64,000 nucleotides of DNA from positions 2,248 to 66,247 of the forward strand of contig JBCDAA010000002.1 of assembly GCA_039186435.1 (NCBI GenBank), written 5' to 3'. This DNA is from Myxococcota bacterium (GTDB lineage Bacteria > Myxococcota_A > Polyangia > Polyangiales > Houyiibacteriaceae). Under the pieces are notes generated by a model. That model did no database searches. It had not been told where the DNA came from and saw only the letters and a list, made by a program, of their open reading frames with translations. The position numbers and the translations under genes were made by a program. This document shows positions 8,681-38,265 of the stretch, one piece after another. Every line of letters begins with the position of its first letter. The first letter of the stretch is position 1.

Positions 8681-10810
8681 ATGAGAGCCAACGACCGAAG
8701 CGCGCAACCGGTTGCGCGGCATAGAGCAGTTCTCGCGTTCACCCTGTGGGCGTCTGCGGCTCCGTTCACTTCGGCGCAGGATACGGAAGCGGAAGACGAG
8801 TTCACCCTTGATGAGCCGGGGGAACTCACTCTCGACGACGCTGGGGATATCCAGCTTGAGGGCGACCTTTCGGAGGACATGGATGACCTCATGCTCCGCA
8901 CGGTTGTCGTTACGGGGACGCGACGCGAGCAACCTCTTGAAGACCTTCCCGTCGCGGTTGAGGTCATCACTCAAGAAGAGATCGATCGCTCGGGCGCGGA
9001 GACCCTCGCGGAGCTCCTTGAAGAACGTGCCGGGCTTCAGACCTTCAACGCGTTTCGAGGGCAGGGCGTTCAGCTTCGCGGCCTAGAGCCGGAGCACACC
9101 CTGATTCTTGTTGATGGTGAGCGCACGATTGGCCGCATTGACGGCACCTTGGATCTCACCCGGTGGCAGCTCGAAGATGTCGAGCGGGTTGAGATTGCCC
9201 GTGGCTCGGCGTCCGCGCTTTGGGGAAGCGACGCGCTCGCAGGGGTCATCAACATCATTCCGCGCCGCGGTCAGGAGGGCTGGACCGCGTCGGCAAGAGC
9301 CACGTACGGCTACCAAGATCGGCGTCGAAGCAACCGGCGCTCGAACTTTGAGGGCGGACCGCGTATCGACGACGGAGAGGACCTCCCCGACGACAGCTAC
9401 GGCGGAACCTACGACCTTGTGGGACGCCTCGGGTACGGCACCCAGCGCGCTGGCGGAACGGTTTTCCTTGGCTACCACCGCCTCGACGGCTTTGACCTCG
9501 ACCCGCGCGATGGAGCCACGAACGCGCCGGATACCGAAACGATCACCGCCGGTCTTTCGGGGTGGGCGAAGTTCGGGCCCACAACGCTCCGACTTCGATC
9601 TGAGATCCTCCATCGCGACGACGTTATTTTTGAAGCGCGTGGGCCACGGCTGATCCGCGAGCGTCTCAACCGAACCGACACCGCGAACGTCAGTCTCACC
9701 CCGGTCATCGACTTCGACCGCGGACAGCTCACGATGCGGGTGGCGTACTCCCGTTTCCGCGATCAGTTTCTCCGGCGGATTGTCGGCGAAGAGCAGATCG
9801 ACCCCACGACGATCACCACCGAGCAGCTGGGTCAGCTTCAAGGGCGGTACGTGCACTCGTTTAACGACGCGCACGTTTTCACCATTGGCTACGACACCTC
9901 CCTTGAGACGCTTCGAACGCCTCGCCTTCAGCGCACCGGAACGCGCGCCCGCCTCGCGCCCTATGTTCAGCATGAATGGACTGTGTCGGAGGAGCCCTAC
10001 GTGGCCGTGGTTCCCGGCATTCGTCTCGACGCGGACAGCTGGTTCGGTACGGCCGTCTCGCCAAAGGTCGCGGTACGGGTCGACCCCCACGAGAAGCTCG
10101 TCTTGCGCGCGTCGGGCGGACGAGGCTTTCGTGCACCGGACTTCCGGGAACTTCTGCTTCAGTTCACCGACAACGAGAGCCTCGGCTACATCGTGTTTGG
10201 GAACCCAGACCTAGAGCCCGAGACCAGCTGGAGCGTGGATGGCGGTGCCGAGCTGCGTCTTGGCCGCGCTTGGCTCGGCGTGACCGGGTACGCGACCTAC
10301 GTCGACGACCTCATCACGGTAGACCTCTTCGAGGTGGACGGCGCGGTTTCCCGCTTTGGCTACGTGAATGTCGGAAGCGCACGGACTCGCGGCCTTGAGG
10401 CTCAGGCTCGCTTCGCTCCCCTCCGCGGCGGGGATCATCGTTTTCGCATCGACGCCTCGTACACCTTTCTCGATGCGGACGACCGCACCAACAACCGACC
10501 CCTTCCCGGTCGCGCGCGGCACGCGGGAACGCTTCACCTTCGCTATCAACATCAGCCCTCTGGCATCAGCGCCCTCTGGCGGTCGCGACTCTCGGGCGAG
10601 CGCATCTTCTTCGATGGCGACGAGCGGATTGAGGCGGAGCCCTTTCTCTCGCTGGATCTGCGCCTAGAAAAGAACTTTGCCGGTGACCGGTTCCGTATCT
10701 TCGTCGGCGTCGACAACGTACTCAACAACGGCGGCACGTTTCTCACGACCCGCCCGCGAACATTTTGGTTCGGCGTCGCCGCCCGGCGCCGAGCGGAGGA
10801 ACAAGAATAA
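8681..10810 (+). CDS. TonB-dependent outer-membrane receptor
   Basis: Signal peptide ending AAPFTSAQ, an acidic linker, a plug domain (VVVTGTRREQPLEDLPVAVEVITQEEIDRSGAETLAELL), and a ~550-aa barrel region. Confidence 0.9.
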   Translation: MRANDRSAQPVARHRAVLAFTLWASAAPFTSAQDTEAEDEFTLDEPGELTLDDAGDIQLEGDLSEDMDDLMLRTVVVTGTRREQPLEDLPVAVEVITQEEIDRSGAETLAELLEERAGLQTFNAFRGQGVQLRGLEPEHTLILVDGERTIGRIDGTLDLTRWQLEDVERVEIARGSASALWGSDALAGVINIIPRRGQEGWTASARATYGYQDRRRSNRRSNFEGGPRIDDGEDLPDDSYGGTYDLVGRLGYGTQRAGGTVFLGYHRLDGFDLDPRDGATNAPDTETITAGLSGWAKFGPTTLRLRSEILHRDDVIFEARGPRLIRERLNRTDTANVSLTPVIDFDRGQLTMRVAYSRFRDQFLRRIVGEEQIDPTTITTEQLGQLQGRYVHSFNDAHVFTIGYDTSLETLRTPRLQRTGTRARLAPYVQHEWTVSEEPYVAVVPGIRLDADSWFGTAVSPKVAVRVDPHEKLVLRASGGRGFRAPDFRELLLQFTDNESLGYIVFGNPDLEPETSWSVDGGAELRLGRAWLGVTGYATYVDDLITVDLFEVDGAVSRFGYVNVGSARTRGLEAQARFAPLRGGDHRFRIDASYTFLDADDRTNNRPLPGRARHAGTLHLRYQHQPSGISALWRSRLSGERIFFDGDERIEAEPFLSLDLRLEKNFAGDRFRIFVGVDNVLNNGGTFLTTRPRTFWFGVAARRRAEEQE

Positions 10811-12420
10811 TGCGTCGTTCTCTTTTCTTTTCCCTAGCGCTTCTTCTCGCTTGCGATGATCTCGGCAGCAGCCCGGTCGATTCGGGTGCCGATCCTGACG
10901 CCGGCACGGACGACGCCGGCGAGGTCGATGCCGGTGCGAGCGAACCGGTGCAGCACACCGACATCGGCAACGGCGTTACCGAGACCCTCGTCGACGGGAC
11001 CGACACGCGGCGTTGGCTGGCTCTCGATCTCGACAACGGCGGCGCTGTTCTCGATGTGAGCATCACCGAGGACACCGCGTGGGATCTTGCGATTCAGCGC
11101 TTCGCGTATCGCACGAACGGCGGCGCGGGAGGTCCCGGCAACGTGCGGGTCGCGTTCCGGGACGACGTGACCTTCGAGGCGGCGACCCAGGCTCCCGAGG
11201 TGGGCTGGACGCAGGATCAGCCCGCTGAGGATTCGATGATCCCGGACGATGTTCCGATGGGCGAAGAGGTCCCCACCACGGTCATCTCCCACGGTGAAGA
11301 TCCGTGGTTCAACTACAACCCGATGACGCACGTGCTGACGCCGAAGGAGCGTGTCTACTTCATCGAAACGAGTGACCGAGCCTACGTTGCGCTTCAGCCG
11401 GTCGACTACTACTCGCCGGAGACGGGGGACTCGGGGTATCCCGCGTTCCGCTGGAAGATGGTCGACGCGCCGGACGGCGTGCTGCCGGGCTTTGATGTCG
11501 ATGCCTCCTCGCGTGACACCTGGGTCTACCTGAACCTCAGTGGGGAGGTCGTCACCGTCGAGAACGAGGCGACTGACCCGTGGGATCTTGCGATCCAGCG
11601 CACGGCGATTCGCACGAACGGTGGTGTGAGCGGCCCGGGGGTTGGCGGTGCTCGCGAGGCGACCGAGACCTGGGAAGTCCTCACGGAGACCACAACCGTG
11701 GGCTTTGTCGAAGACTCCCTTCTTCCGCTTCCCGGCCCTCCAGGATCTGGCGAGGCGCCCGGAAACTCCGCGCTGGCGACCTGGTTCGACTACGAGGAGT
11801 CCACGCGAACCGTTTCGGCGCGAGCGAACGCGGCGTTCGTTGTACGAGGTGCCGCGGGCGGCTACAGCAAGCTTCGCGTCCTCGCCTGGGACGACGGCGT
11901 GTACCGTCTCGAGATCGAGCCGATTGCGCGCGTGGTCGACACCCGCAGCGCAAGTATCGACGCATCGTCGACCGACGTGTGGGCGTACTTCAGCTTCCGG
12001 CAGGGCGAGCTCGTCGAGGTTTCGAGCGCGTCGGATGACCCGTCCTGGGACATCGGCTTTCAACGCACCGCGATCACGACGAACGGTGGAACGAGCGGCG
12101 AAGGGGAAGGTGCGTCCTACGAGGCGAGCGCCGCGTTTGATGAGATCGATGCAGTGGACGGAGAGTTTCTCGTCGACGAAGACCTGCCTCTGCCCGGACC
12201 GCCGGGGAGCGGAACGTTCTCCGGAAACCCCGCCCTCAACACCTGGTTCGACTACAACGAAAGCACCCGCGAAGTGAGCGTGCGCGACACGGCCTTTGTG
12301 GTCCGCACGGCGGATGGCGGTTTCGTCAAGCTCCAGGTAGAAGCCTGGGACGACGGTAACTACACGCTTCGCTGGGCCTACGCGGGCGCGGGCGGAGCTC
12401 GCTTCGGAGACGACGAATGA
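10810..12420 (+). CDS. lipoprotein with three tandem HmuY-like domains
   Basis: The ATG overlaps the receptor stop (TAATG). Lipobox LALLLACDD. Three repeats each carry WD(L/I)(A/G)(I/F)QR-x4-TNGG-x-(G/S)G-x-G and a later ...KL(R/Q)V(L/E)AWDDG... strand, the pattern I associate with the HmuY family. Confidence 0.65.
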   Translation: MRRSLFFSLALLLACDDLGSSPVDSGADPDAGTDDAGEVDAGASEPVQHTDIGNGVTETLVDGTDTRRWLALDLDNGGAVLDVSITEDTAWDLAIQRFAYRTNGGAGGPGNVRVAFRDDVTFEAATQAPEVGWTQDQPAEDSMIPDDVPMGEEVPTTVISHGEDPWFNYNPMTHVLTPKERVYFIETSDRAYVALQPVDYYSPETGDSGYPAFRWKMVDAPDGVLPGFDVDASSRDTWVYLNLSGEVVTVENEATDPWDLAIQRTAIRTNGGVSGPGVGGAREATETWEVLTETTTVGFVEDSLLPLPGPPGSGEAPGNSALATWFDYEESTRTVSARANAAFVVRGAAGGYSKLRVLAWDDGVYRLEIEPIARVVDTRSASIDASSTDVWAYFSFRQGELVEVSSASDDPSWDIGFQRTAITTNGGTSGEGEGASYEASAAFDEIDAVDGEFLVDEDLPLPGPPGSGTFSGNPALNTWFDYNESTREVSVRDTAFVVRTADGGFVKLQVEAWDDGNYTLRWAYAGAGGARFGDDE

Positions 12421-14429
12421 ATCGTACCCTTGCCCTTTGCGTACTCCTCGGTTGTGGCGGATCGCCTTCGCCATCGGCCTCGACGCCGACGACGACCGAG
12501 CCCTCGGTGACGGTAGAAGACACCCCTGCAGAAGAAACGGCACAGATGATCGCTGCGGCGGATGTCGTGGTTGATGGCGGCTTGCCGCTACTCCCTCGTG
12601 GGCTGACCAGCTTTGGCCTCGCCGAGCACGAGGGCGCGCTCTACCTCCTTGGAGGCTTCTTTGGTGAGCCCCATCGCTACGTCGCAGAGGACCAGTCGGC
12701 GGCGCTGTACGTCCTGCGTCCCGGGATGCGCGAATGGGAAGAGGGACCCGGTCTCGATCGAGGGATGCAGAGCGTTGCTCTCGTCAACGTGCAAAACGCG
12801 CTTCACCGCATTGGCGGTATGCAGGTTCGTGACGGTGGGCTTCACTCGGTTGCGGAGCACGCGCGCCTCGACCCCGCGGCCGGTCGATGGACGACTCTTC
12901 CTGCGCTTCCGGAGCCGCGTTCGTCCCACGACGCCATTGCTCACGGCGACTCGCTTTGGGTGGTGGGTGGATGGCGCCTGTCCGGTGCGCCGCGCGAAGG
13001 AACGTTCGCAGAGACAGCGCTCCGCTTTGATGGCGAGACCTGGCATGCGACGCCGGCTCCCCTTCGGCGTCGAGCCCTTGGACTCGCGGCCACCGAGAAT
13101 CATCTCGTTGCGGTCGGCGGGCTCGCCGCAGAAGGCGTCTCTCAGCAGGTCGACATTCTCGACGTGAGCACGGGCGAGTGGTCTCGCGGCCCCGATCTGC
13201 CCGGAAACCGCACGGGTTTTGGCATCGCGGTGGTGGGCGTCGGCGACTCGGTGTACGCGAGCGGCTTCGACGGTGTTCTTCGTCGACTACGCGTCGGTGC
13301 GGACGCCTGGGAAGACGTCGGAACCATCGCCTTTCCGCGGTTCTTTCACCGCATGGTTCACGTCGATGGAGGCTTCGCGGTCGTGGGCGGGATCGGAGGA
13401 ATGCACACTTCCGGCCGAACCCGCGTGGTGGAGACCGTCCCCGATTCCGGCGGAGGCGCGCTGACGATCGCGGTGCCTTGGGACGCGGAAGCGAAGAACC
13501 GTCAGGGAACCTTCCTCGCCGGCGATCACCTCTACTTCTTCGGCGGCAACAACAGCCTCGGGCAGCATGACTTCGAGGTGGAGAACTTCGTGCGCGAAGG
13601 ATGGCGGCTCCACGTGCCCTCGCTCTCCTTCGAGCAGGTCGCGGATTATCCGGCGGCGCGCCAGACGATGACGACTCTTGTCGTCCCCTCCGAAGACCCG
13701 CGGGAAGAGCCGACGGTGATCTCGCTGGCGGGCTTCGGTCACGAGGGTCCGACGGCCGGGGAAGAGACCGTCGCGAAAACGCACCCGGAAATCTTTCGCT
13801 ACAGCGTGTCGGAGAACGCCTGGAGTCCGATGCCTTCGCTTCCGGTTTCGCGCAGTCAGCTCGGCGCGTTCTTTCACAACGGTGACCTCGTCGTGATGGG
13901 CGGCCTCGACTACGACCCGACCCGTCCGGAAAACGACCAGTTCCGCCATCTCACGGAGATCGTGTCGCTTACCGCGAACGGGACGGAGTTCCAGACGCTT
14001 GAGCAGGCCCTTCCCGGGCCGCGACGTGCCTTTGGCGGCGCCTACCTCAACGGGCGCTACTACCTGATCGGCGGCATGCGCGAAGGGTTTCAGCTCGTGG
14101 ATGGCTGCGTTGCCTTCGATCCCGCCGAGTCATCGTTCGACGAGGTCGCCTGTCCTCAGCGCACCCGTCTGAACCCGCGCCTCGTGGCGGTCGGCGAGCA
14201 ACTCGTCCTCGTGGGTGGTACCACGCGGCTCGAAAACGGTGAGCTTGGGGAGGACCGCAGCATCGAGGTGTACAACCCCGCGACCAATCGCTGGCGAGCT
14301 CTCGAGACGGAGCTTCCGTTCACGCCCAAGCATGCGCAGGCTTTCGACTATCACGGTGGTCTGCTCGTGGTTTCGACTCACAACGACGAGCGGCGTCTGC
14401 GACTCGCGTTCATTCCGGTGGCCGAGTGA
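12417..14429 (+). CDS. Kelch-repeat (probably double beta-propeller) lipoprotein
   Basis: ATGA overlap with the upstream gene. Lipobox LCVLLGCGG. About twelve blade signatures, including LYLLGGF, LHRIGGM, LWVVGGW, LVAVGGL, FAVVGGI, LYFFGGN, LVVMGGL, YYLIGGM and LVLVGGT. Confidence 0.75.
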   Translation: MNRTLALCVLLGCGGSPSPSASTPTTTEPSVTVEDTPAEETAQMIAAADVVVDGGLPLLPRGLTSFGLAEHEGALYLLGGFFGEPHRYVAEDQSAALYVLRPGMREWEEGPGLDRGMQSVALVNVQNALHRIGGMQVRDGGLHSVAEHARLDPAAGRWTTLPALPEPRSSHDAIAHGDSLWVVGGWRLSGAPREGTFAETALRFDGETWHATPAPLRRRALGLAATENHLVAVGGLAAEGVSQQVDILDVSTGEWSRGPDLPGNRTGFGIAVVGVGDSVYASGFDGVLRRLRVGADAWEDVGTIAFPRFFHRMVHVDGGFAVVGGIGGMHTSGRTRVVETVPDSGGGALTIAVPWDAEAKNRQGTFLAGDHLYFFGGNNSLGQHDFEVENFVREGWRLHVPSLSFEQVADYPAARQTMTTLVVPSEDPREEPTVISLAGFGHEGPTAGEETVAKTHPEIFRYSVSENAWSPMPSLPVSRSQLGAFFHNGDLVVMGGLDYDPTRPENDQFRHLTEIVSLTANGTEFQTLEQALPGPRRAFGGAYLNGRYYLIGGMREGFQLVDGCVAFDPAESSFDEVACPQRTRLNPRLVAVGEQLVLVGGTTRLENGELGEDRSIEVYNPATNRWRALETELPFTPKHAQAFDYHGGLLVVSTHNDERRLRLAFIPVAE

Positions 14430-14788
14430 TGCGAAACGCTCGCGCCCACGATCCAAACGGTCGCCGTGTCGTCCACCGACACGGCTCATGGGAAGTGCGC
14501 GCGGGCGTCGACCTTCAGCTGTGGGATCCGGAGCGAGAGGTTTCGCTCTTGCTTCCCTCCCCTTACGTCGCGGAGTTCTTCGAGCTTCTCACCCCGACCG
14601 GGTGGCCTCTTGAGATCCACGACTACGGGGTCCTTGTTCATCTCGCCGAGTCGCGCTTTCAGATCACGCTCCCGCCTTGGGCTCACCTTCGCGCGTGGCT
14701 CCGTTGGCACATTCGTACCGCGAGGATCTCATGCGAACGCGCAGAACTCGCATCGGTCCACCTGCTTCAACCCTCGGCTCTTCGATGA
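14429..14788 (+). CDS. small conserved hypothetical protein (paralog of 50353-50688)
   Basis: The ATG overlaps the Kelch stop (TGATG). Shares HDP(N/G), (S/P)WE(V/L)R, (L/I)LLPSP and WLRW segments, in the same order, with the product of 50353-50688. No signal peptide. Confidence 0.6.
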   Translation: MRNARAHDPNGRRVVHRHGSWEVRAGVDLQLWDPEREVSLLLPSPYVAEFFELLTPTGWPLEIHDYGVLVHLAESRFQITLPPWAHLRAWLRWHIRTARISCERAELASVHLLQPSALR

Positions 14789-16299
14789 CCGATCAGGAGC
14801 ACCAAGAGCAAGAGAGCGCTCTCGCCCCCTCCGGCGCTGCTGCACCCGCAGCCGCCGTCGGACGTTGGTGTCCCCGCATCCGTCGCCCCGGCGTCCTCGG
14901 CTGCCCCGGCGTCCTCGGCTGCCCCAGCGTCGTCTTCTGCCCCAGCGTCGGGTCCGACGCCGGCATCTTCGGGTTCAGGAATTCCCGCAAGGCGTCGAAG
15001 GGCGGGCGCAGGCTGAACGAGGCCAAAACCGTAGAGGTCATCGTGGCCCGTCGCGTCCGGCGTCGCGAAGAACGACTGGGCCGCAGTTTCGTTGAGCAGC
15101 GTTCCGATCTCGGCGCTTGTCACGCTGGGGTCGAGACTGATCAGCAGCCCCGCGATGCCTGCCACGATCGGGCAGGCCGACGATGTGCCCCCGAAAGTCG
15201 AGGTGTAGTCGTCCGGGGAAGCGCCGTCTGGCCCGGCGATGTCGGCCGTGTTCGTTCCCGTCGGAGCGACCACATCCACCGCGTCGCCGAGGTTGCTGAA
15301 CTGCACACCCTCGTCGAAGTTGTTCGTCCCCCCCACGCCGATCACACCATCGACCGCCGCGAGTTCGTTGGCCGCGACGACTCGGCTCTCGTTTCCGATC
15401 GCAAACACAACGACTCCCCCAAGGCCGTCGCGTCCTTCGGCGATCACGGTTTCGATGATCGCGCCGAGCGCCGGCGGAACAGGGATCGGATCCCGAAATC
15501 CCCAGCTGTTCGAGACGATGTCCGCGTCGACGTCCAAGGCGAATTCGAAGGCTCGAACATCCGCGGAGAGCGGCACGGCCTCGCCGGTTCCGGTAAGGAG
15601 GCGCACGCAGCGAAGCCGGCACTCGGGGCAGCTTCCTGCGACACCGAGGTTGTTGCTCGTGGACGCGGCGACCAGTCCGGCGCACGCCGTACCGTGTTCG
15701 TTGCTTCGCGTTTCCGGCCGGTACGTGGGATCCATGTCGCTGTCGACGACGTCGAGGCCCGAGTCCATTTTCTCGACCAGGTCCGGGTGGGTCAGATCAC
15801 ATCCGTTGTCGACAACGACGATGTTGACCTCGGGGTCGCCGTCCTCGATCGCCCAGGCCTCTTCCATATCCAGTCGGTCGTAGAACCACTGACCCGAGTA
15901 TCGCGGGTCGTTGGGCGGCAGCTCGACATCGTGCAGGATGTGGGGAATCTGAATGTCCGGCATGACGCTTCGCAGCCGTCCCGACCGAACGTGGTGAGCA
16001 AGGCGAAGGGCGAGGTCGAGACCGTCTTCGTTCGTTCGGGTGCTGACGACCCGAAGGAGTGCGAGTCGTTCCGAAGCGACGGTGACGACACGGACCTCGA
16101 GGTCGTTGATCGCGTCGTTTCGGTCGTGGAGCCAAAGGAGCGCGTGCGCGTCCACGCCGACGGGGTGACCGTCCCAGCGAAGGCCGCTCGGGGTGCGCTC
16201 CACTTTGACGTACTTCTCGCCATCGTAGAGCGACTGCGCACTCGCTACGTTGGTGAGCAGCGTGCTTGCGAGCACCAGGCCCTTTAGGATTTTTCGCAT
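14767..16299 (-). CDS. secreted subtilisin-like serine protease (S8) with MYXO-CTERM-type tail
   Basis: ATG 16299 gives signal MRKILKGLVLASTLLTNVASAQ. Triad contexts are VVVDNGCDLTHPDL, HGTACAG and GGTSSACPIVAG. The C-terminus is GGCGCSSAGGGESALLLLVLLIGHRR. Confidence 0.85.
   Translation of the reverse strand: MRKILKGLVLASTLLTNVASAQSLYDGEKYVKVERTPSGLRWDGHPVGVDAHALLWLHDRNDAINDLEVRVVTVASERLALLRVVSTRTNEDGLDLALRLAHHVRSGRLRSVMPDIQIPHILHDVELPPNDPRYSGQWFYDRLDMEEAWAIEDGDPEVNIVVVDNGCDLTHPDLVEKMDSGLDVVDSDMDPTYRPETRSNEHGTACAGLVAASTSNNLGVAGSCPECRLRCVRLLTGTGEAVPLSADVRAFEFALDVDADIVSNSWGFRDPIPVPPALGAIIETVIAEGRDGLGGVVVFAIGNESRVVAANELAAVDGVIGVGGTNNFDEGVQFSNLGDAVDVVAPTGTNTADIAGPDGASPDDYTSTFGGTSSACPIVAGIAGLLISLDPSVTSAEIGTLLNETAAQSFFATPDATGHDDLYGFGLVQPAPALRRLAGIPEPEDAGVGPDAGAEDDAGAAEDAGAAEDAGATDAGTPTSDGGCGCSSAGGGESALLLLVLLIGHRRAEG
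14886..14957. repeat. 18-bp tandem repeat (2 exact + 2 diverged units) encoding the (AAEDAG)n linker of the S8 protease
   Basis: ccccggcgtcctcggctg occurs twice, followed by ccccagcgtc... units. Confidence 0.8.
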
Positions 16300-16308
16300 C
16301 CCTAAGTT

Positions 16309-16327
16309 GATATTGACTTCCAATTTC
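16309..16327. promoter_or_regulatory. Fur-like box GATATTGACTTCCAATTTC
   Basis: 12/19 to GATAATGATAATCATTATC. An AT-rich island in the 40-bp divergent gap between the S8 protease and the HmuY-like operon. Confidence 0.5.
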
Positions 16328-16339
16328 GAAAGCAACCCG

Positions 16340-17140
16340 ATGAAGTACTTACTCACTCTCACACTCACGCTCAGTTTTGCCTGTGGCGATGATGACGGAA
16401 CTGATTTCGACGCCGGTGGCGGAACAGACGCGGGCGTGGACAGCGGCATGGTCGACACGGGCGTTGATGCAGCCCCGGAGGTTCGGTGCGAACCCACCTC
16501 GTCGGCATGTGTAGATGAGCAAATCGTTCAACTCGGCCTCTTTGACAACATTGCAGAAGGCGGCATCGAAAACGAGGACCTCGGCACGCACTGGCGGACG
16601 CGCATCGACGCGCGAGGTGGCGGGTTCATGACGTCGCAGTCCTACCTCTACCTGCGCTTCACGGACGGCGGGGCGGAGAAGCTGGAGCTCTCCGATGAGA
16701 CCGCGTTCGACTCGGGCGACTGGGACATGGCGTTTCGGCGCTTTGTGATGCGGCTCAACAGCGGCGTTTCCGGTCCCTCGTGTGTGGCCGCGGGCCGCAC
16801 CGCAGCGGACACCGACTTTGACACGTTGGCCGCGGTTCCAGACGGCCTCGCGTTCCGCACGGAGGAATACTACTCCACGCCGGACTGCAGCGTGGTTCCC
16901 GACGGATCCGGGCTCGGGAGTCCAGGCACCGCGCTGGCGAGCTACTGGACCTACCGCAGCTGTGTCGAAATGACCGGCAACGTTTACGTGGTTCAGCTCC
17001 CGTCGGGTCGTCACATCAAGCTCGAGGTCGAGACGTACTACACGCCGGAAGTTCAGGTCGCCTGCGACCGTGACGGGATGCTTCCGCCGGGACCTTCCGG
17101 CTCGGGCAACGTGCAGATCCTCTGGGCCTTCATCGACTGA
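16340..17140 (+). CDS. single-domain HmuY-like lipoprotein
   Basis: ATG 16340 gives MKYLLTLTLTLSFACGDDDG. Contains WDMAFRRFVMRLNSGVSGPS and a later YVVQLPSGRHIKLEVETYY strand, parallel to the repeats of 10810-12420. Confidence 0.6.
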   Translation: MKYLLTLTLTLSFACGDDDGTDFDAGGGTDAGVDSGMVDTGVDAAPEVRCEPTSSACVDEQIVQLGLFDNIAEGGIENEDLGTHWRTRIDARGGGFMTSQSYLYLRFTDGGAEKLELSDETAFDSGDWDMAFRRFVMRLNSGVSGPSCVAAGRTAADTDFDTLAAVPDGLAFRTEEYYSTPDCSVVPDGSGLGSPGTALASYWTYRSCVEMTGNVYVVQLPSGRHIKLEVETYYTPEVQVACDRDGMLPPGPSGSGNVQILWAFID

Positions 17141-17158
17141 ACCTTCATCGACTGAACC

Positions 17159-18634
17159 ATGCTGCGACACGCCGTCATCCTCATGGCCCTCGGCTGGGCC
17201 GCGATCGCGAACGCGGATCGTCCGGACACCCCCGGGACGATGGCGACGTTTCGTTTCGCCGAGGATGACGTCGTCGAGCGGGCAGACTTTGATCGCGTGC
17301 GTGTTCACTTCACGCGCTCGGGAGTGAACTCCGTCCCGGAAGCGGACATCGACGAGACCGGGGTTCCCGACTTCGTCGAGCTTGTGGGCACCAGCTACGA
17401 CGACGTTCTCACCGTCTACGCCAGCTGGGGGTTCCGTTTGCCACGAAGTGACGCTGACCTCGAGGACGACAACGGGGGCGACGAGCGCTTCGACGTCTAC
17501 CTGGTCGACTTCTTCGGCTCCGCCGACGGTTCGTTTCAAACGGACGCCTGTGATGGCGGCACCTGTATCGGCTACGCGGTCCAGGAAAACGACTTCGTCG
17601 GCTACGGCTACCCGAGTCTGGAGCGTGCGGTCGGAATCCTTTCGAGCCACGAGCTCTTTCATGCAGTTCAGGCGGCTTACGACGACGGACAGAACTCCGT
17701 CGTCGGCGAAGGGACCGCCGTGTGGGCGAGCGACCGCTTCAACCCGCGTTTCCGAGAGGTTCCCGCCTTCGCGCCTGGCTACTTCGAGCGCGCGGACCGA
17801 CCGATCGACCAGCCTCTCGTGGGTGCGGTCCTCGATGCCTTCGGCTACGGCGCATCGGTCTTCTTCACATTCCTGACCGAGCATCTTGGCGACGAAGATC
17901 TTGTGCTTCGTCTTTGGGAAGACTGCGTCGACGGCGCCCGCGGGGTGGAGGACCCGCAGTGGCTACCGGCGCTCATCGCGATGCTCGAGCGCGACTACGA
18001 CACTGAGTTCGAAACGATCTTTGTCGAGTTTGCGACCTGGAACTGGTTTACCGCCGGACGCGCAAATCCGGACCGCGCGTACGCCGAGGGGATTCGCTAC
18101 CCCGAGGTCAACATGCGCGACGCAACGTTGCCTTTTGAAGACGTACGCCCGCGGCACTTTCGAGCCGCGACACGCTACTACCGCTTCAGTGCGGGCGGGC
18201 GCGACGAGGTACGTGCGCGTCTGGTGGGTGATGGTGCAGCTGATCTTCGCCTTCGTCTGATCGATCTCGACACCGGCGCCCTGAGCGACGTTCGGGGTAC
18301 CGAGATCGCGGCACCAGGCGCGCCCTCCATGGCGCTCGCCATCATCAATCCTTCGCCGGCGGGTTCAAGCCGGCGCGCGACGCTTTGTCTCGGAACCGAG
18401 ATGGAAGTCGACCGTTGTGAACGTCTCCATGCGGAAGAGGACGACGCCTCCCTCGATGCCTCTTTCGATTCGTCTGTTGCTGACGCACATACACCCGACG
18501 CACGTGTCAGTGATGCAGGAGGGGGGGACACGGAACCAGGGTCCCCCGGTGGGGGTTGCTCCGCCGGGGGCTCTGGGAACGCGTTTTTTGGGTTTCTCGT
18601 GCTCGGGATTCTGTTGCGAAAGGAAGGGCCATGA
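17159..18634 (+). CDS. putative secreted HExxH metalloprotease with MYXO-CTERM-like tail
   Basis: Signal MLRHAVILMALGWAAIANA. HELFH motif (SSHELFHAVQAAYD). The C-terminus is GGGCSAGGSGNAFFGFLVLGILLRK. Confidence 0.65.
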   Translation: MLRHAVILMALGWAAIANADRPDTPGTMATFRFAEDDVVERADFDRVRVHFTRSGVNSVPEADIDETGVPDFVELVGTSYDDVLTVYASWGFRLPRSDADLEDDNGGDERFDVYLVDFFGSADGSFQTDACDGGTCIGYAVQENDFVGYGYPSLERAVGILSSHELFHAVQAAYDDGQNSVVGEGTAVWASDRFNPRFREVPAFAPGYFERADRPIDQPLVGAVLDAFGYGASVFFTFLTEHLGDEDLVLRLWEDCVDGARGVEDPQWLPALIAMLERDYDTEFETIFVEFATWNWFTAGRANPDRAYAEGIRYPEVNMRDATLPFEDVRPRHFRAATRYYRFSAGGRDEVRARLVGDGAADLRLRLIDLDTGALSDVRGTEIAAPGAPSMALAIINPSPAGSSRRATLCLGTEMEVDRCERLHAEEDDASLDASFDSSVADAHTPDARVSDAGGGDTEPGSPGGGCSAGGSGNAFFGFLVLGILLRKEGP

Positions 18635-18984
18635 ACGCGATCCAGCAGACGCTGATCTATCGCTTTGGCGGGCTCACCGAACTTGTTCTCGAGCGGTTTC
18701 GGCCCAAGGCGGAGCACGACGTGGATCAGAACCCTCTGGTCGACATGGGCTGCGTCGACGGTGGGCGAATGGTGCTGTGCGCCCTCGCTGAGGAGAACGT
18801 GTTCCAGCTCTCGGCAGAGCACCCCGACTTCGACGTAACGATCGTTGCCAATCACTGTCCTGAGTGCGGGCTGGGGTTGGTCTACGTTGAGCGTTTTCGC
18901 GGTGACCCCGCAGCGGCGGTGCGGTGGATCAGCGCCCTCCGGATGCATGTGCAGATGCCCGATCCATCCGGCGTCCTCCACTAG
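18631..18984 (+). CDS. hypothetical small protein
   Basis: ATGA overlap with the metalloprotease stop. 117 aa with a CPEC motif. No family recognised. Confidence 0.5.
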   Translation: MNAIQQTLIYRFGGLTELVLERFRPKAEHDVDQNPLVDMGCVDGGRMVLCALAEENVFQLSAEHPDFDVTIVANHCPECGLGLVYVERFRGDPAAAVRWISALRMHVQMPDPSGVLH

Positions 18985-18988
18985 CGGG

Positions 18989-19801
18989 ATGGGCGGACGT
19001 ACCGAGGTCGCGCTCGATGGGGTTCCGGAGACGATGCTCTGGACGCTCCACAATCGCGCGTCTGAGGCGAAGCGTCCGGACCGATTGCTCGACGACCCCG
19101 CAGCCGTCGCCATCTACGACGCCATCGACTACGACTACGAACGCAGCTTCGGTCCTCCGGACGGCTCCCACGCGATTCGCTCTCTCGTGTTCGATGAACG
19201 TGTACGCCCTTGGCTTGCTGCCCATCCGGGCGGCGAGGTGGTGGAGCTCGCGTGCGGTCTCGAGACGCAGTTCAAGCGCTGCGATGATGGGCAGGTTCGA
19301 TGGATTTGCGTCGATCTTCCTGATGCGATGAAGGTTCGCGAGAAGTTCCTCCCTGCAACGACGCGATGCCGGCACGTCACCCGAAGCGTTTTGGACTTTG
19401 CGTGGATGGATGAGGTTCAAGGAGATCGCGGCGTGTTTCTCAGCGCGCAAGGTCTCTTGATGTACCTCCCCCCGAGCGATGTAGAGAGGCTCTTCGTTGC
19501 GATTGGGGACCGCTTTCGTGGCGCGACGCTCATGTTCGATGTGATCCCGCGGTGGTTCTCTCGAAAGACGCTCGCCGGCTTCAACATCACCAAGCACTAC
19601 CAGGCGCCACCGATGCCCTGGGGGGTCGATCGAGGCGAGCTTGAGGGGACACTCCGTCGCTGGACGCCGCAGGTCGAGCGGCTGGAGCACATCCCCTTTA
19701 AGAGCTTTCGCGGAATCGCCGGGAAGGTTCTCCCGCTGGTGTCGCGACTTCCGGGCCTTCGCAACTACCTTCCCGGCATTGTGGTTGTTCAGTTCCGCTA
19801 G
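18989..19801 (+). CDS. SAM-dependent methyltransferase, TcmP / leucine-carboxyl-methyltransferase-like
   Basis: ATG 18989. GVPETMLWTLHNRASEAKRPDRLLDDPAAVAIYDAIDYDY... and E(L)ACGLETQF parallel the 38384-39211 product (IQETLLIPLLGRAEE...DPKAVEIVGRLNYDF, EIGAGLNTRY). This is the pattern of the LCM/TcmP family. Confidence 0.6.
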   Translation: MGGRTEVALDGVPETMLWTLHNRASEAKRPDRLLDDPAAVAIYDAIDYDYERSFGPPDGSHAIRSLVFDERVRPWLAAHPGGEVVELACGLETQFKRCDDGQVRWICVDLPDAMKVREKFLPATTRCRHVTRSVLDFAWMDEVQGDRGVFLSAQGLLMYLPPSDVERLFVAIGDRFRGATLMFDVIPRWFSRKTLAGFNITKHYQAPPMPWGVDRGELEGTLRRWTPQVERLEHIPFKSFRGIAGKVLPLVSRLPGLRNYLPGIVVVQFR

Positions 19802-19806: not shown

Positions 19807-21450
19807 CTATTCGGCAGGAAACACGCGGAGGGGCGTGCTGTACGCGAAGCGATCCTCGGCGTCCTCCAGCCCAAGCGATCCGCGGAAGCTCCAGCCCCAT
19901 CCGAAGAGGTCGCCGGTGGCGCTCAACGCAAGGGCCGGTCCGCCGGCTCCGACTTCGATCTCAACGATGTCGAAGGCGTCTCGATCCTCCTCGTCGACAG
20001 CGACCTCCGACGCGATGAGGCGGTTTTCAAGATCTCGCTCTCCGTCGGGGAGAAGTCCTTGGCCAAGCTGGCCGAGAGTTCCGAGGCCCCAAAGAAAGAC
20101 CCGACCCTCCGTCGTGAGGGCCATACCCACAAAGCCGTCCCCCGCGATGTTCTCGATGTTCGCCAGTGGGACCCGTTCTCCCGAAGCGTCTTCGACCCGC
20201 ACGGCGGTTGGCATGAGGATGTCGTCGCCAGAGTCGTCGCCGACCCCCGCTTGCCCCGATCGGTTCTGGCCCCACGCGAGAACAGTGCCGTCTTGGAGGA
20301 GCGCGTAGGTCGTACGGTTGGCCGCTGCGATCGCGGCGACGTCCAGAATCTCGAGACGCGTGGGCGTAGGGTGTGGATCCCGATCGGAAGTGCCGAGACC
20401 GAGCTGTCCCGCGTTGTTTTCGCCCCACGCCCAGATGCGCCCCTCGTTGTCTAGCGCAAACGACGCGTTCGTCCCGGCCGCGATCTGAATCACGTTGGTG
20501 AGTCCCTCGACGGCTGCGGGTCCGATTTCGGTCGTCGACTCGCGCCCGAGTTGTCCATCGTCGTTGGCGCCCCAGGACCAGACGGAACCGTCGTCGCGGA
20601 GGACGAGCGCGTGATCGAAACCGGCCTGAATCGCGATCGCGTTGCTGACGCCGGGGACCTCGGTCGGAGTGCGTCGGCACGGGCTCGTCCCGCGGGAGCC
20701 GCAGTCCTCTTCGGCCGCGTAGCCGAGCTGACCTTCGTCGTTGCTGCCCCAGGTCTCGACGGTACCCGTATCGGTTAGTGCGATCATGAACGTTTGACGA
20801 GTGACCACCGAGACCAGGTTGGGCGCATCTCGCACGTAGCGAAGCGGAAGCGTCGACTCCGGGGGCTCCTCGCCAAATCCCGATCCCTCGAGTGTTCCGT
20901 TTCCGAGCTGCCCGAGCTCGTTGCGACCCCAGGTGAAGAGCTCGCCGTCTCGAAGAAAGGCGGACTGGGAGTTACCGACGCTGATGCGGTGACCGAAGTA
21001 CACGGCCACCGAAGCCATCGTTTCGTTTCCAGCTTCGTCGAGGGCGACGACGATGACGTCGTTCGAACCAGGCGTGAGGGGAGCGGTGACCTCGAAGCTG
21101 CCGTCGTCGGCGACATCGATCGCTGCTGTGGTGTCTCCAGCGACGAGCGTGACGCTCGCAAGCCCCATGTCATCGGTGGCGGTTCCGGTCACCCGCACTC
21201 GCCGGACGGGTGTCATTCGGCCGGAGCGGGGGGATGAGAGTGAGACCGTCGGCGGCGTCGTATCCGGCGGCATCGCGTCGAAGCCAGCGTCGAAGCCGCC
21301 GTCAAAGCCGCTGTCAAAGCCGCTGTCGAATCCACTGTCGAATCCGCCGTCGACGGGCGAGGCATCGATGCCGCTGTCGAGTCCAGCTGTGCCGTCGTCG
21401 TCGCCGCACCCGCACAAGAATGTCACGAGAATCACTAGGTATTTGTTCAT
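19807..21450 (-). CDS. RCC1-repeat (7-blade) lipoprotein
   Basis: Lipobox VTFLCGCGDDDG, a (DSGF)n linker, then seven WG-x-N/G-x-x-GQLG blade motifs. Confidence 0.85.
   Translation of the reverse strand: MNKYLVILVTFLCGCGDDDGTAGLDSGIDASPVDGGFDSGFDSGFDSGFDGGFDAGFDAMPPDTTPPTVSLSSPRSGRMTPVRRVRVTGTATDDMGLASVTLVAGDTTAAIDVADDGSFEVTAPLTPGSNDVIVVALDEAGNETMASVAVYFGHRISVGNSQSAFLRDGELFTWGRNELGQLGNGTLEGSGFGEEPPESTLPLRYVRDAPNLVSVVTRQTFMIALTDTGTVETWGSNDEGQLGYAAEEDCGSRGTSPCRRTPTEVPGVSNAIAIQAGFDHALVLRDDGSVWSWGANDDGQLGRESTTEIGPAAVEGLTNVIQIAAGTNASFALDNEGRIWAWGENNAGQLGLGTSDRDPHPTPTRLEILDVAAIAAANRTTYALLQDGTVLAWGQNRSGQAGVGDDSGDDILMPTAVRVEDASGERVPLANIENIAGDGFVGMALTTEGRVFLWGLGTLGQLGQGLLPDGERDLENRLIASEVAVDEEDRDAFDIVEIEVGAGGPALALSATGDLFGWGWSFRGSLGLEDAEDRFAYSTPLRVFPAE
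21277..21348. repeat. 12-bp tandem repeat x6 encoding (DSGF/DGGF)n
   Basis: gtc(g/a)aa(g/t)cc(a/g)c(c/t) units read directly. Confidence 0.8.
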
Positions 21451-21482: not shown

Positions 21483-21587
21483 TTCTAGCGAAGGTGTGCG
21501 GTGTGTCACGTCAAGGGGTTTTCTTCTGTAGATGAAAATGACATTCAATATCGAAGTCGCCAAGCCGTGGTGGCTGAAGGACAACCG

Positions 21588-22247
21588 ATGACCGAACCCG
21601 CGAAGCGCTTTGACGATGCGGAGATGTACGAGCGGCAGATTCGTCACGTCCTCCCAGGCTACGACCTGCTCCACTCCCTCACGTTCGCGCACCTCGAAGC
21701 GATCCTTCCGTCCGCCGGCCGTTTGCTGGTCGTTGGATGCGGCACGGGGCATGAGCTCGTGCGGGCGGCGGCGGTGCTTCCCGAATGGTCGATCGAGGCC
21801 GTGGAGAAGTCTGCGGCGATGCGTTTCGCTTCCCGGGGACGGGTGAATCGCTCCGGACTCCGTCGTCGGGTTCGGGTCGCGCCGACCTTTCCCGCGGAGC
21901 GCTCAGATGCTGGGCTGTGCCTTCTCGTGCTGCATCTCATCCCGGACGACGGTTCTCGGGAAGCCCTCTGGGCCGAGCTTGGAAACGCGATCGCGCCGGG
22001 GGGAACACTTCTCACCGCGGAGATTGAGTCGATGGACGAGTCCACGCGTTCGGCATGGCGTGGTTGGTCTTCCGAAGCCGGGGCGTCCGCCGTCAAACTT
22101 GAACAACTCGAGCATCGCCTTGATGGAGGGTTTCCCCTCGTAGACGCAGCGCGTCGGAATGCGCTAGCGAAAGAGGCCGGATTCGCCTTGGCGGGTGACT
22201 ACTTTCGCGCATTTGGCGTAGTTGCGAGTGCCTGGACAAAGGGCTAG
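21588..22247 (+). CDS. class I SAM-dependent methyltransferase
   Basis: ATG 21588 preceded by GAAGGA. Contains LLVVGCGTGHE (motif I) and LLVLHLIPDD. The upstream GTG 21501 start is less likely. Confidence 0.7.
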   Translation: MTEPAKRFDDAEMYERQIRHVLPGYDLLHSLTFAHLEAILPSAGRLLVVGCGTGHELVRAAAVLPEWSIEAVEKSAAMRFASRGRVNRSGLRRRVRVAPTFPAERSDAGLCLLVLHLIPDDGSREALWAELGNAIAPGGTLLTAEIESMDESTRSAWRGWSSEAGASAVKLEQLEHRLDGGFPLVDAARRNALAKEAGFALAGDYFRAFGVVASAWTKG

Positions 22248-22255
22248 TCCGCCGT

Positions 22256-22819
22256 ATGACGCGATGGTTGGTGTTGGTGATGTTGCTTGGGATCGCTTGT
22301 GGTGATGACGACGGTTCCACGGATGCGGGGACGGGTGCGTCCGATACTGGGACCGACGCATCCGCCGATGCTGGCGATCCTACCCCGCGAACGGTGACCC
22401 TCGAAGTGACTCCGGGAGTCGTTCCGGAGGAACCGACAACGACCGTTTCGTTTCGTTTGACGCTCGACGCGGAGCCACCGGCGAGCGGGACGCGCGTGTA
22501 TGTGCTTGGCGACCTTACGCGTGGCCTCACCCAGCTCGATGTTTTCGCGCTCTCGGTTGATCCTTCAACGAACGCGCGTCCACAGGGCGACCTCGACTTC
22601 AGCGGCTTTACGCTTCTCATGACGAGCCGTGAGGTGACCGTGTCAATCGACAGTTTTGCCGACGGAGAAGCCGAGGATCCCGTCGATGTGATGTTTCGGG
22701 TCGTGCCCTTCGAGGAAGTCCCTTGGGGTGAGTTGCCCGTGGATGGAGCCGAGGCCGCGGCACCCTACGTGGTTGGTGATCCGGCGACGGCCATGATTCG
22801 ACTCCAAGACAGTCCGTAG
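22256..22819 (+). CDS. hypothetical lipoprotein
   Basis: Lipobox VMLLGIACGDDDG. 187 aa, beta-rich. A Calx-beta-like fold is a weak guess only. Confidence 0.55.
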   Translation: MTRWLVLVMLLGIACGDDDGSTDAGTGASDTGTDASADAGDPTPRTVTLEVTPGVVPEEPTTTVSFRLTLDAEPPASGTRVYVLGDLTRGLTQLDVFALSVDPSTNARPQGDLDFSGFTLLMTSREVTVSIDSFADGEAEDPVDVMFRVVPFEEVPWGELPVDGAEAAAPYVVGDPATAMIRLQDSP

Positions 22820-22822
22820 CTT

Positions 22823-24400
22823 ATGCGCGCCTCGTGGTTTCTTTGGCATCGTCGCTTGGGGGCTGCGCTCGGGCTCTTTCTCTTCGTGATCTGTTCCTCG
22901 GGGTCGCTCGCTGTTCTCGGGGAGGAGTGGGACAACCTCTTTGGCGATGCCCCGGCAAACGCAAGCGGAGACGTCGACTGGGCCGGCATCGAGGCGGCGC
23001 TTCGCGAGGCGTACCCCTACGGCGAGATTCGAATCGTTTCCACGAGCCCGGATCGAGTGGTGCGGGCGACCGTGGAGACGCTTCGAGGTCAGTGGGTTGA
23101 AGTGCGGCTCGCGCGGAACCCCGCGCGGATCCTGAGCGTTCGCAGCCTCGTGACGGTCAAAGTCTTCCTGCGTCAGTTTCACAAGGGGCTGCTCGTTCCC
23201 AAAGGTCTTTACCTCGTCACGCTGATGTCGCTGCTGCTGCTCTTCAGCACGATCAGCGGACTCGTCATCTATCGACGCTGGTGGACTCATCTCTTTCGCC
23301 TGCGCCTCAAAGCCGAGCGGCGTCTCGCGTGGGCGGACATCCACCGAACGGTGGGTGTCTGGAGCGTGCCCTTCGCCCTGGTCATCGCGATCACCGGAAC
23401 CTGGTATCTCGTCGAGGCGAGTGCCCGCGATTTTGCGGGGGCGACCGTGGAAGCTGAGCCTCCCGAGCTCGCGCGGCCTTTTACCGAGCGCCGAGCAGGC
23501 ATGGACGCGTGGGTTCGGGTTGCGGAGTCTGAGCTTCCAGGTTTTGCGGTCCGAACCATTCTCTTCGGGGAGGACGCTGCCTCGCCCGTCCGCCTGGACG
23601 GAGAGCGAGATGCGATCCTGGTGAGGCCACGGGCCAACCGAGTCTATCTCGATCCCGCGACAGGTGAGGTCGTTGACGTGTGGTCGGAGGAGGACCAAAC
23701 GATCGCGCAGCGGTGGTCCGACATGGCGGACCCTCTTCACTTCGGCGACTTTGCGGGACTCGCGGTGAAGCTCCTTTGGTTTCTCGCCGGGCTATTTCTC
23801 TCGCTTGTTGTTCTCGCGGGGCCTCTCCTTGGATACCTGCGCGCGCGACGTCGGCTGGAGATGAAGCGAAAGCTCCCCTCGCTCTCACGGGGGCGCCGTT
23901 TCCTCGCGAACTTCGCGAACGGGCTCGTTGCCCTGGTGTTGCTTGCGTCGATTGCGCTCGCGACGATGTCGATGTCCATTCCCACGATCGCCGGCTGGGG
24001 AACCCCCGACCGCGTCACCCACCTTTCGGACGACGGCGAGGCGATGCTGGCTCGGCACGACGAAGGGGACGGGCGATGCACCTATCGAGTGGTCGGACCG
24101 GGTATCGCCGAGCACGAGAGGACGGTGTGGATTGACGGCGAGTCGCACACCCTCTCGCACGGGGAGCTCTTCGGCCCCTGCGGCGATACGGTTCAGCTCG
24201 GCGAACAGACGCTCGCCCTGACCCCTCTGGCTGACCTCGACGACGAGCCTCGTCGCGCGCTGGAGCGTCCTCCGACGCCCGCTTCGACGTATGTCACCTT
24301 GTTCGTGATCGTGTTCTTTGCGCTTCAGCTCTTCGCGGTTGTGCTCTGGCTTTGGTATGTGGCGCGCCCCAACCGGCGTGTCGCGGAGAAGAAGGGATAG
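22823..24400 (+). CDS. PepSY-associated TM-helix protein (PiuB/FoxB-like)
   Basis: N-terminal WFLWHRRLGAALGLFLF..., repeated H-x-x-x-G-x-W TM signatures (IHRTVGVWSVPFALVIAITG, PLHFGDFAGLAVKLLWFLAG), and large periplasmic loops. Confidence 0.8.
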   Translation: MRASWFLWHRRLGAALGLFLFVICSSGSLAVLGEEWDNLFGDAPANASGDVDWAGIEAALREAYPYGEIRIVSTSPDRVVRATVETLRGQWVEVRLARNPARILSVRSLVTVKVFLRQFHKGLLVPKGLYLVTLMSLLLLFSTISGLVIYRRWWTHLFRLRLKAERRLAWADIHRTVGVWSVPFALVIAITGTWYLVEASARDFAGATVEAEPPELARPFTERRAGMDAWVRVAESELPGFAVRTILFGEDAASPVRLDGERDAILVRPRANRVYLDPATGEVVDVWSEEDQTIAQRWSDMADPLHFGDFAGLAVKLLWFLAGLFLSLVVLAGPLLGYLRARRRLEMKRKLPSLSRGRRFLANFANGLVALVLLASIALATMSMSIPTIAGWGTPDRVTHLSDDGEAMLARHDEGDGRCTYRVVGPGIAEHERTVWIDGESHTLSHGELFGPCGDTVQLGEQTLALTPLADLDDEPRRALERPPTPASTYVTLFVIVFFALQLFAVVLWLWYVARPNRRVAEKKG

Positions 24401-37836: not shown

Positions 37837-38265
37837 CTACGGAGCCGTGACGACTAGCTCTCCGCGCATCGCTACGAAGTGCCCGGGGAACGTACAGACA
37901 TAAGGATAGGTTCCCGGTTCCGGAGCGGTGAAGGTGACCTCGGTCGTTTCACCTCCTCCGACCAGCGACGTGTGGGCGATGATCGCGTCGCGCTGCGCGT
38001 CGGGAATGAAGTTGTTCGCTGCACCGGCTGCGGAAGCGGCGGCGGCGAAGGCGGGCACGTCGGTGTCTGGCTTCAAGATGACGACGTTGTGGCCCATGGC
38101 GGTCTTCGCCATTTGGCCGGTGTGACGAAGAGTGATCGTGACCTTCTGGCCGCTCACCGCCTCGATACGCGTGGTGTTGAAGGACATCTGATCCCCCGCC
38201 TGGAGCTCGACCGCGACATCCCCGCCGCAACCGAGCAGCACAACCAACCCAACGATATGTCTCAT
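37837..38265 (-). CDS. azu: azurin, lipoprotein form
   Basis: Lipobox VVLLGCGG, then QAGDQMSFNT..., GHNVV (His ligand) and YVCTFPGHFVAMRG (Cys-His-Met ligands). Collinear with classical azurin. Confidence 0.9.
   Translation of the reverse strand: MRHIVGLVVLLGCGGDVAVELQAGDQMSFNTTRIEAVSGQKVTITLRHTGQMAKTAMGHNVVILKPDTDVPAFAAAASAAGAANNFIPDAQRDAIIAHTSLVGGGETTEVTFTAPEPGTYPYVCTFPGHFVAMRGELVVTAP

Follow-up and report, generated by a model that had tools for sequence, protein, structure and literature searches.

The closest described counterpart of the locus analysed here is the haem uptake system of Porphyromonas gingivalis, in which the gingipains target host haemoproteins, release haem for the lipoprotein HmuY and also shed HmuY (PMC2671838). 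Within the HmuY family, haem binders with a His-His, a His-Met or a Met-Met pair are known (PMC12106395). Proteolysis of haemoglobin, as well as of fibrinogen and LL-37, has been described for mirolase, a secreted subtilase of Tannerella forsythia (PMC4404884). For myxobacteria there is a passing one-line mention of HmuY/HmuR-like pairs from 2009 (PMC2671838). Our literature search found no study of haem uptake or of HmuY proteins in Myxococcota beyond this mention, and the iron work on myxobacterial predation has centred on siderophores (e.g. PMC11388931). Here we analyse a 64,000-nt stretch of a Myxococcota genome (contig JBCDAA010000002.1), in the following called the window; all coordinates are window positions and the G+C content is about 64%. 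In this window the gene for a single-domain HmuY-family lipoprotein, HmuY1, is followed by the gene for a putative HExxH metallopeptidase of the MXAN_6640 family. Across a short gap with a Fur-like box the HmuY1 gene diverges from the gene for an S8 subtilisin-like serine peptidase.

We find that these three genes recur together in many Myxococcota, in part of them with a related box. The best reading of this association is an iron-regulated surface proteolysis which may be coupled to the capture of a tetrapyrrole.

Conservation of the cassette in Myxococcota

We scanned one genome per GTDB species and obtained 206 genomes with a HmuY1 relative, from which 80 loci were kept. These loci span Sandaracinaceae, Polyangiaceae, Sorangium (including So ce56 and So0157-2), Archangiaceae and Myxococcaceae. 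The window proteins were compared with the 80 loci by tblastn and the neighbourhoods were counted by hand. The HExxH peptidase is present in 69 of the 80 loci, in 56 of them as the next gene after HmuY1 and in the same orientation. S8 homologues with 40-60% identity adjoin the HmuY-like gene in 64 loci; 31 of them are divergent and upstream as in the window, 15 are convergent after the HExxH gene and ten lie between the HmuY1 and HExxH genes. A receptor gene and/or a gene for a triple-domain HmuY protein is found within 10 kb in 13 of the 80 loci.

The pairing also holds when approached from the peptidase. In all four HExxH contexts looked up (Chondromyces crocatus Cm c5, L087, L088 and L089) a HmuY1-family gene abuts or overlaps the start of the HExxH gene, whereby the upstream gene of L088 (269 aa) was assigned to the family by size and position only. 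The pair in the window is a fifth case. As judged from gene order, the conserved core is therefore HmuY1 together with the MXAN_6640 metalloprotease, and the S8 peptidase is a frequent third member. The proposal of the initial annotation that the three exported proteins belong together is borne out by these counts, which speak for a conserved unit and not for a chance neighbourhood.

In the Archangium locus L089, a gene for an HtrA-like protease (trypsin plus PDZ, locus positions 11602-12888) follows the HmuY1-HExxH pair, and the analysis called no S8 gene in the surrounding 10 kb. The pair may be able to exchange its serine protease partner.

Each of the protein families was already named in public annotation. 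In our literature search we found no paper mentioning MXAN_6640 and no function or partner described for its family; the obligatory HmuY-family partner upstream of the MXAN_6640 family is, as far as we found, unreported.

Layout of the locus in the window

Every feature, motif and coordinate listed in the initial annotation was present on checking. The divergent gap is exactly 40 bp between the two start codons, and each of these opens a good signal peptide (MRKILKGLVLASTLLTNVASAQS and MKYLLTLTLTLSFACGDDDG). The HmuY-like lipoprotein, which contains WDMAFRRFVMRLNSGVSGPS, scores 38.5 bits against PF14064 (cutoff 27). The HELFH metalloprotease belongs to NF045524 (MXAN_6640_HExxH) with 211 bits against a cutoff of 140. 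The Fur-like box in the gap proved to belong to a set of 12 Fur-like operator copies in the window and is far from chance (see below). The features are collected in Table 1.

Table 1. Features of the locus and of the surrounding window
Feature	Position	Strand	Basis or remark
TonB-dependent receptor	8681-10810	+	Pfam match
Triple-domain HmuY lipoprotein	10810-12420	+	Pfam match; first HmuY protein of the window
Kelch beta-propeller, 670 aa	12417-14429	+	Third gene of the receptor operon 8681..14429
S8 subtilisin-like serine peptidase, signal peptide and MYXO-CTERM sorting tail	14767-16299	-	Peptidase_S8
Divergent intergenic gap between S8 and HmuY1 genes, 40 bp	16300-16339	.	Sequence reading
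Fur-like operator TGATATTGACTTCCAATTTC	16308-16327	.	Copy of the local palindromic 20-mer (box 16308); S8/HmuY1 divergent gap
Single-domain HmuY-family lipoprotein (HmuY1)	16340-17140	+	PF14064
MXAN_6640-family HExxH(+Glu) putative gluzincin metallopeptidase	17159-18634	+	NF045524
Orphan 117-aa cytoplasmic protein, CPEC motif	18631-18984	+	Coding-like codon-position GC
LCM/TcmP-like SAM-dependent methyltransferase	18989-19801	+	PF04072
RCC1-repeat lipoprotein	19807-21450	-	Gene reading; convergent with the methyltransferase gene
Methyltransferase/lipoprotein/PepSY_TM operon	21501-24400	+	Divergent from the RCC1 lipoprotein gene
Azurin	37837-38265	-	TIGR02695, 109.8 bits vs 105.1
Second LCM methyltransferase	38384-39211	+	Divergent from the azurin gene
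Nickel superoxide dismutase	52076-52549	-	Downstream of the azurin/LCM pair
Fur-like boxes	8170, 8267		Before imelysin/di-haem oxidoreductase (DHOR)/imelysin/HTTM operon
Fur-like boxes	21463, 21533		Before RCC1 lipoprotein gene and divergent methyltransferase, lipoprotein and PepSY_TM genes
Fur-like box	29192		Before myxochelin receptor MxcH (975 bits vs cutoff 925)
Fur-like box	31874		Before DUF4397 gene
Fur-like boxes	38286, 38352		Before azurin and second LCM methyltransferase
Fur-like boxes	43137, 46803, 50694		Before three further genes

The HmuY1 lipoprotein

HmuY1 starts with MKYLLTLTLTLSFAC-GDDDG, and its lipobox cysteine Cys15 is kept in at least 90% of 44 homologues, which indicates a lipoprotein signal peptide. 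When the AlphaFold model (pLDDT 84.9) was compared with the PDB by Foldseek, the best 12 matches were all HmuY-family proteins with a probability of 1.0, and nothing else was found below an E-value of 0.1. The structural neighbours are BfrB, HmuY, BF2707, BVU_2192, BfrC, Tfo and PinO, and the sequence-profile matches come from the same set (8b6a, 8b61, 3h8t, 3u22). Compared with the three domains of the triple-HmuY protein encoded nearby, HmuY1 has 26-31% identity to each. The protein collection holds 318 homologues, and all those with a named source come from Myxococcota.

The two peptidases

The S8 peptidase matches Peptidase_S8 with 132 bits in the Pfam scan. Its Asp/His/Ser triad, within the motifs VVDNG, HGTACAG and GTSSACP, aligns with mirolase (8ehe), the closest solved relative of the catalytic domain (E 1.9e-31). 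That mirolase hydrolyses haemoglobin is suggestive only for the S8 peptidase, which by analogy might do the same. The protein ends in ...SDGGCGCSSAGGGESALLLLVLLIGHRRAEG. Scored alone, this tail reaches 26.9 bits with TIGR03901 (cutoff 20) and 17.4 bits with TIGR03382 (cutoff 15.85); within the whole protein it scores 19.9 bits, just below the cutoff of 20. We take it as a bona fide MYXO-CTERM tag. In M. xanthus this tag sends proteins to the cell surface (PMC11980579), and we infer that the proteases would be surface-exposed in the source organism as well.

In the HExxH peptidase H164, E165, H168 and E184 are invariant among 42 homologues, as in the HExxH-plus-Glu pattern of gluzincins. Its model has a pLDDT of 87.2. 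Residues of about 320-412 form a beta-sandwich resembling the PPC/collagen-binding domains of clostridial collagenases (5sv5/1nqj, TM 0.66 on the target by Foldseek), and the catalytic part gave weak Foldseek matches to ColG, ERAP2, aureolysin and LTA4 hydrolase. No significant match to a solved relative of the family was obtained in the sequence-profile search of the PDB. The M. xanthus protein MXAN_6640 itself was not among the best 120 matches of a Myxococcaceae query.

Two further traits of the MXAN_6640 family were seen. An invariant Arg-Pro-Asp motif (consensus RPDTPG) stands right after the signal peptide. The consensus N-terminus has a lipobox-like LAGC, with which such proteins would be lipid-anchored at either terminus; the copy in the window is without an N-terminal cysteine.

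The operator and the iron regulon

The box at 16309-16327 matches the Fur consensus of E. coli at only 12 of 19 positions. By reading other AT-rich intergenic regions we spotted a recurrent 20-mer, TGAnAnTGACnTnCAnTnTC, and the box fits it. This pattern has 24 matches over both strands of the window, with 2.3 expected. In a leave-one-out matrix built from the other ten sites the box scores 28.3 bits, which is rank 7 of all window positions. In total, 12 sites have 22.6 bits or more, followed by a position with 12.3 bits, and the maximum in shuffled sequence is 17.6 bits. Since the motif was derived locally the list of sites is partly circular, which the leave-one-out matrix and the shuffles mitigate. 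The copies at 21533 and 50694, whose 20-mers are identical to each other, are best with 15 of 19 positions of the E. coli consensus. What is repeated ahead of iron-uptake genes is a palindromic AT-rich 19-mer akin to GATAATGATAATCATTATC, as known for Fur operators. Searching instead with the E. coli consensus itself, at up to three mismatches, gave 38352 as the sole match and missed the box in the gap.

Because the 12 operator copies precede the genes for MxcH, imelysin/DHOR, PepSY_TM and others, the window reads as an iron-limitation island, and the gap box is a genuine member of its operator set. Binding of this box by Fur is predicted; the window open reading frames that were scanned against Pfam include no Fur gene.

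We then applied the window matrix to the 80 loci (L006-L085) with a threshold of 18 bits and counted the matches by hand. A box lies at most 300 nt upstream of the HmuY1 match in 16 loci, and 24 other matches are scattered across 1.33 Mb. Thus 16 of the 40 matches (40%) fall in about 2% of the DNA. Locus L008 has a near-identical box, TTGATATTGACTTTCAATTTC, in an S8/HmuY1 gap of about 45 bp, and in L028, L024 and the Myxococcaceae genome L070 a related box is found just before the start codon, in L070 as TGAAAATGATAGTCAATATC. It appears that part of the cassette family shares the control by iron.

The divergent gap is equally short in L002, L003, L004 and L008. In several lineages it spans only 10-47 bp (L002 9991-10000, L003 9954-10000, L004 9971-10000).

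Some operator-preceded genes of the window have no family. Two boxes lie in the gap between the divergent azurin and second LCM genes, and azurin together with the nickel superoxide dismutase would fit a set of copper and nickel proteins that spare iron. An azurin gene and an LCM gene (62% identical) adjoin the cassette in L003 and L009, and L003 also has a nickel superoxide dismutase gene. The RCC1-repeat lipoprotein carries an Ig-like domain, and the region from which its gene and the operon diverge has two boxes. RCC1 lipoproteins are encoded near the cassette in L004/L021, L011, L047 and L072 too.

Link to tetrapyrrole uptake

The receptor operon of the window ends 1.9 kb from HmuY1, beyond the S8 gene. 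In other genomes the connection is closer. L010 and L042 have all four genes, for HmuY1, HExxH, receptor and triple-HmuY, in a row on one strand. The trio of receptor, triple-HmuY and Kelch genes lies beside the cassette in L002, L010 and L035, and L002 and L035 have the arrangement of the window. In two metagenome relatives, L003 and L005, the receptor/triple-HmuY operon continues with genes for a Peripla_BP_2 protein, a FecCD permease, an ABC ATPase and a PNPOx_N+DUF2470 protein (HugZ-like), and this is a standard set for haem import and degradation. These operons are the strongest support, indirect and from two relatives, for haem or a related tetrapyrrole as the ligand of HmuY1.

Vitamin B12 instead of haem was considered for the receptor at 8681. 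The window has no cobalamin riboswitch or other Rfam family, and the NCBIfam families do not separate the two. The Kelch propeller may serve the receptor by capturing ligand at the surface, in a role analogous to that of propeller lipoproteins in other TonB systems.

The CPEC protein and the methyltransferase

The initial annotation had read HmuY1 and the three genes after it as a four-gene operon. The tight spacing in the window (18 nt, a 4-nt overlap in which the CPEC ATG overlaps the HExxH stop codon, and 4 nt) is as described, but near the cassette the CPEC gene is present in one and the LCM methyltransferase gene in two of the 80 loci. The CPEC protein has no Pfam or NCBIfam family and just two distant relatives in a set of 1.84 billion representative proteins, and its cysteines are not conserved. 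It is a lineage-restricted orphan between the metalloprotease and methyltransferase genes, and as it has essentially no family in an exhaustive search we rejected it as a member of the conserved system. The methyltransferase scores 35.1 bits with PF04072 (cutoff 22.3) and 39.6 bits with TIGR00027 (cutoff 93.55). Its likely start is ATG 18989, four bases past the previous stop, rather than 18845. It is 37% identical to the second LCM copy of the window, and no solved relative was found for it. By these counts both genes are local additions to the operon.

That all four genes serve one pathway, the methyltransferase for instance modifying a captured or secreted small molecule, could be argued from their spacing, from the paralogous LCM gene behind two Fur-like boxes and from the LCM2-like gene near the cassette in L003 and L009, but we regard it as very improbable because the CPEC and LCM genes are poorly conserved with the cassette, the CPEC protein is an orphan and both proteins are without signal peptide whereas the cassette proteins are exported.

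A proposed mechanism for proteolysis and capture

We suggest that the cassette acts in these steps. At low iron, a Fur-type repressor would leave the single operator in the 40-bp gap and thereby switch on both transcription units. The two peptidases would be exported to the outer surface, fixed there by a lipid anchor, and could degrade extracellular carrier proteins, for example haemoproteins from lysed prey or detritus. HmuY1, on its flexible linker, would bind the released tetrapyrrole and finally pass it on for import by the TonB-dependent receptor and triple-HmuY system encoded nearby. Such a digest-then-capture route, carried out by a conserved iron-repressed cell-surface module of Myxococcota, is in our view the best single explanation. 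We hold it tentatively, with somewhat less than even confidence, because we infer both the ligand of HmuY1 and the substrates of the proteases. The digestion of haemoproteins and a predation-linked mining of haem are likewise proposed, with gene association as their only support.

Several observations weigh against this explanation. The receptor at 8681 has its top scores against B12 and hemin receptor families of NCBIfam and stays below both cutoffs. Neither a haem ABC transporter nor a haem oxygenase was found among the window open reading frames scanned against Pfam. A scan of 16000-16700 for sigma-70 promoters and terminators found none; because the 40-bp gap is without recognisable sigma-70 promoter, the S8 and HmuY1 promoters must overlap the operator or sit in the flanking coding regions, or the mRNAs must be leaderless. 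With the window matrix no box was found in 64 of the 80 loci, among them Sorangium and most Sandaracinaceae, where the operator may have diverged or iron control may be absent.

The tag of the metalloprotease is a further such point. The initial annotation had assigned a MYXO-CTERM tail to both proteases. This stands for S8 with its isolated tail, but the HExxH tail (GGGCSAGGSG-NAFFGFLVLGILL-RKEGP, with a single Cys and an RK end) scores 10.8 bits against the cutoff of 20 and seems to be a degenerate Cys-TM-basic tail. The consensus tail of the family is canonical (GGCGC...RRRRR), and homologues carry the name MYXO-CTERM protein in their sources.

The haem ligands are the other weak point. Invariant in the HmuY1 family are four Cys, Met211, three Tyr, two Arg and three Trp, and never a histidine. 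In an hhalign alignment with P. gingivalis HmuY (probability 92.7%; the HmuY sequence used agrees with the PDB alignment blocks) Ser190 stands opposite His134 and Tyr202 (consensus Phe) opposite His166, both in low-confidence columns. The iron-coordinating pair of the HmuY proteins, be it His-His, His-Met or Met-Met, is not kept in HmuY1, and Met211 aligns elsewhere. BfrB binds haem without iron coordination, and its paralogue BfrC binds neither haem nor protoporphyrin (PMC12106395). Since members of the HmuY family differ in what they bind, haem binding by HmuY1 is plausible and is not implied by family membership. Taken as a whole, the interpretation in the initial annotation keeps the conserved cassette, the shared operator and the S8 tag but loses the four-gene operon and the HExxH tag.

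Some of these points would be readily explained if HmuY1 were an accessory subunit of the MXAN_6640 metallopeptidase, that is a substrate adaptor, inhibitor or chaperone, or if it bound another ligand. The cassette would then be a general module for surface protein degradation or nutrient acquisition which came under iron control in some lineages only. The invariant pairing is indeed that of HmuY1 with HExxH, often with overlapping stop and start codons, and the S8 peptidase can be absent as in L089 with its HtrA-like gene. No receptor lies within 10 kb in 67 of the 80 loci, just as the box is mostly missing, the haem ligands of HmuY are not conserved and BfrC demonstrates that the fold can exist without porphyrin binding. 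However, the recognisable links of the cassette are to a TonB receptor, triple-HmuY, haem ABC and HugZ-like genes and Fur-like boxes, and the HmuY fold has no other known role. We consider this alternative unlikely.

Alternatively, the peptidases could act mainly on HmuY1 or on each other, cutting the Asp/Gly-rich linker and thus producing a soluble haemophore, and foreign haemoproteins would not be digested. Residues 16-55 of HmuY1, after the lipobox cysteine, are of low complexity and form a disordered Asp/Gly-rich linker, and the model falls to a pLDDT of about 53-55 over residues 1-40. Both peptidases have disordered linkers before their anchors as well (pLDDT below 50 over residues 437-478 of the HExxH model). 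The gingipain Kgp (gingipain K) sheds P. gingivalis HmuY at Lys25-Asp26 (PMC2671838), and the close spacing or overlap of the HmuY1 and HExxH genes suggests that the two proteins are stoichiometric partners. Yet two different peptidases of broad families, one with a substrate-binding PPC-like domain, seem excessive for a single cut in a linker. Such shedding is compatible with digest-then-capture and not exclusive of it; as the main role of the peptidases we regard it as quite unlikely.

A more specific form of the digest-then-capture proposal is that the cassette is a 'proteolytic haemophore', a hard-wired iron-starvation weapon which strips haem from haemoproteins of the prey or the environment and feeds it to the receptor/triple-HmuY system. 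Haem would be held by Met211 and a Tyr in a disulfide-braced pocket, unlike in the HmuY proteins of Bacteroidota. In this full form the idea is possible but doubtful. If true, it would be the first case of a haemophore and haem-releasing proteases in one conserved operon-level unit.

What appears new is the HmuY1/MXAN_6640/S8 cassette, its Fur-type operator and the recurrent fusion to receptor/triple-HmuY operons. This gives a first functional context for the MXAN_6640 metalloproteases in no fewer than 206 species genomes, with culturable Sorangium and Chondromyces among them, and a defined gene set for asking whether predators or saprophytes mine haem by surface proteolysis. The set of 12 operator sites also amounts to a prediction of the Fur regulon for an uncultured lineage of Myxococcota.

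Comparison with known systems

The Hmu system and the gingipains of P. gingivalis share with the window a HmuY-fold lipoprotein, a TonB-dependent receptor nearby as a possible partner and surface-anchored proteases, the latter predicted for the window. The enzymes and the way of anchoring differ. Gingipains are cysteine proteases whereas the cassette has a serine peptidase of family S8 and a gluzincin. Gingipains are anchored by the type IX secretion route. The genes for gingipains are not known to be linked to hmuY, whereas in the window the protease genes are hard-wired beside the HmuY gene. The tag of the window cassette is MYXO-CTERM, which belongs to myxosortase and type II secretion (PMC11980579). 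Nor does HmuY1 retain His134 and His166, the histidine pair of the P. gingivalis protein. The source organism is also, unlike P. gingivalis, not a haem auxotroph of an animal host. If our proposal is true, the logic of gingipains and HmuY would have arisen independently with other enzymes and another anchoring pathway.

As regards the lipoprotein, BfrB (HmuY-Bf-2, 8b6a) of Bacteroides fragilis is the nearest solved protein, being both the best profile match (E 1.2e-10) and the best structural match (E 6e-9, TM 0.67 on the target). The HmuY1 family resembles it in being without the iron-coordinating His/Met pair. The two proteins are 22% identical, and the HmuY1 family adds four invariant cysteines, an extra N-terminal helix and the invariant Met211. 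Furthermore, BfrB is not encoded with peptidases, unlike HmuY1.

For the peptidases, NF045524 agrees with the window HExxH protein in the HExxH motif and the downstream Glu, and the family consensus has a MYXO-CTERM tail. Mirolase, an S8 member of the KLIKK proteases, resembles the S8 peptidase of the window in the catalytic domain only. It carries a type IX C-terminal domain in contrast to the MYXO-CTERM of the window S8, and it is without genetic link to a HmuY homologue.

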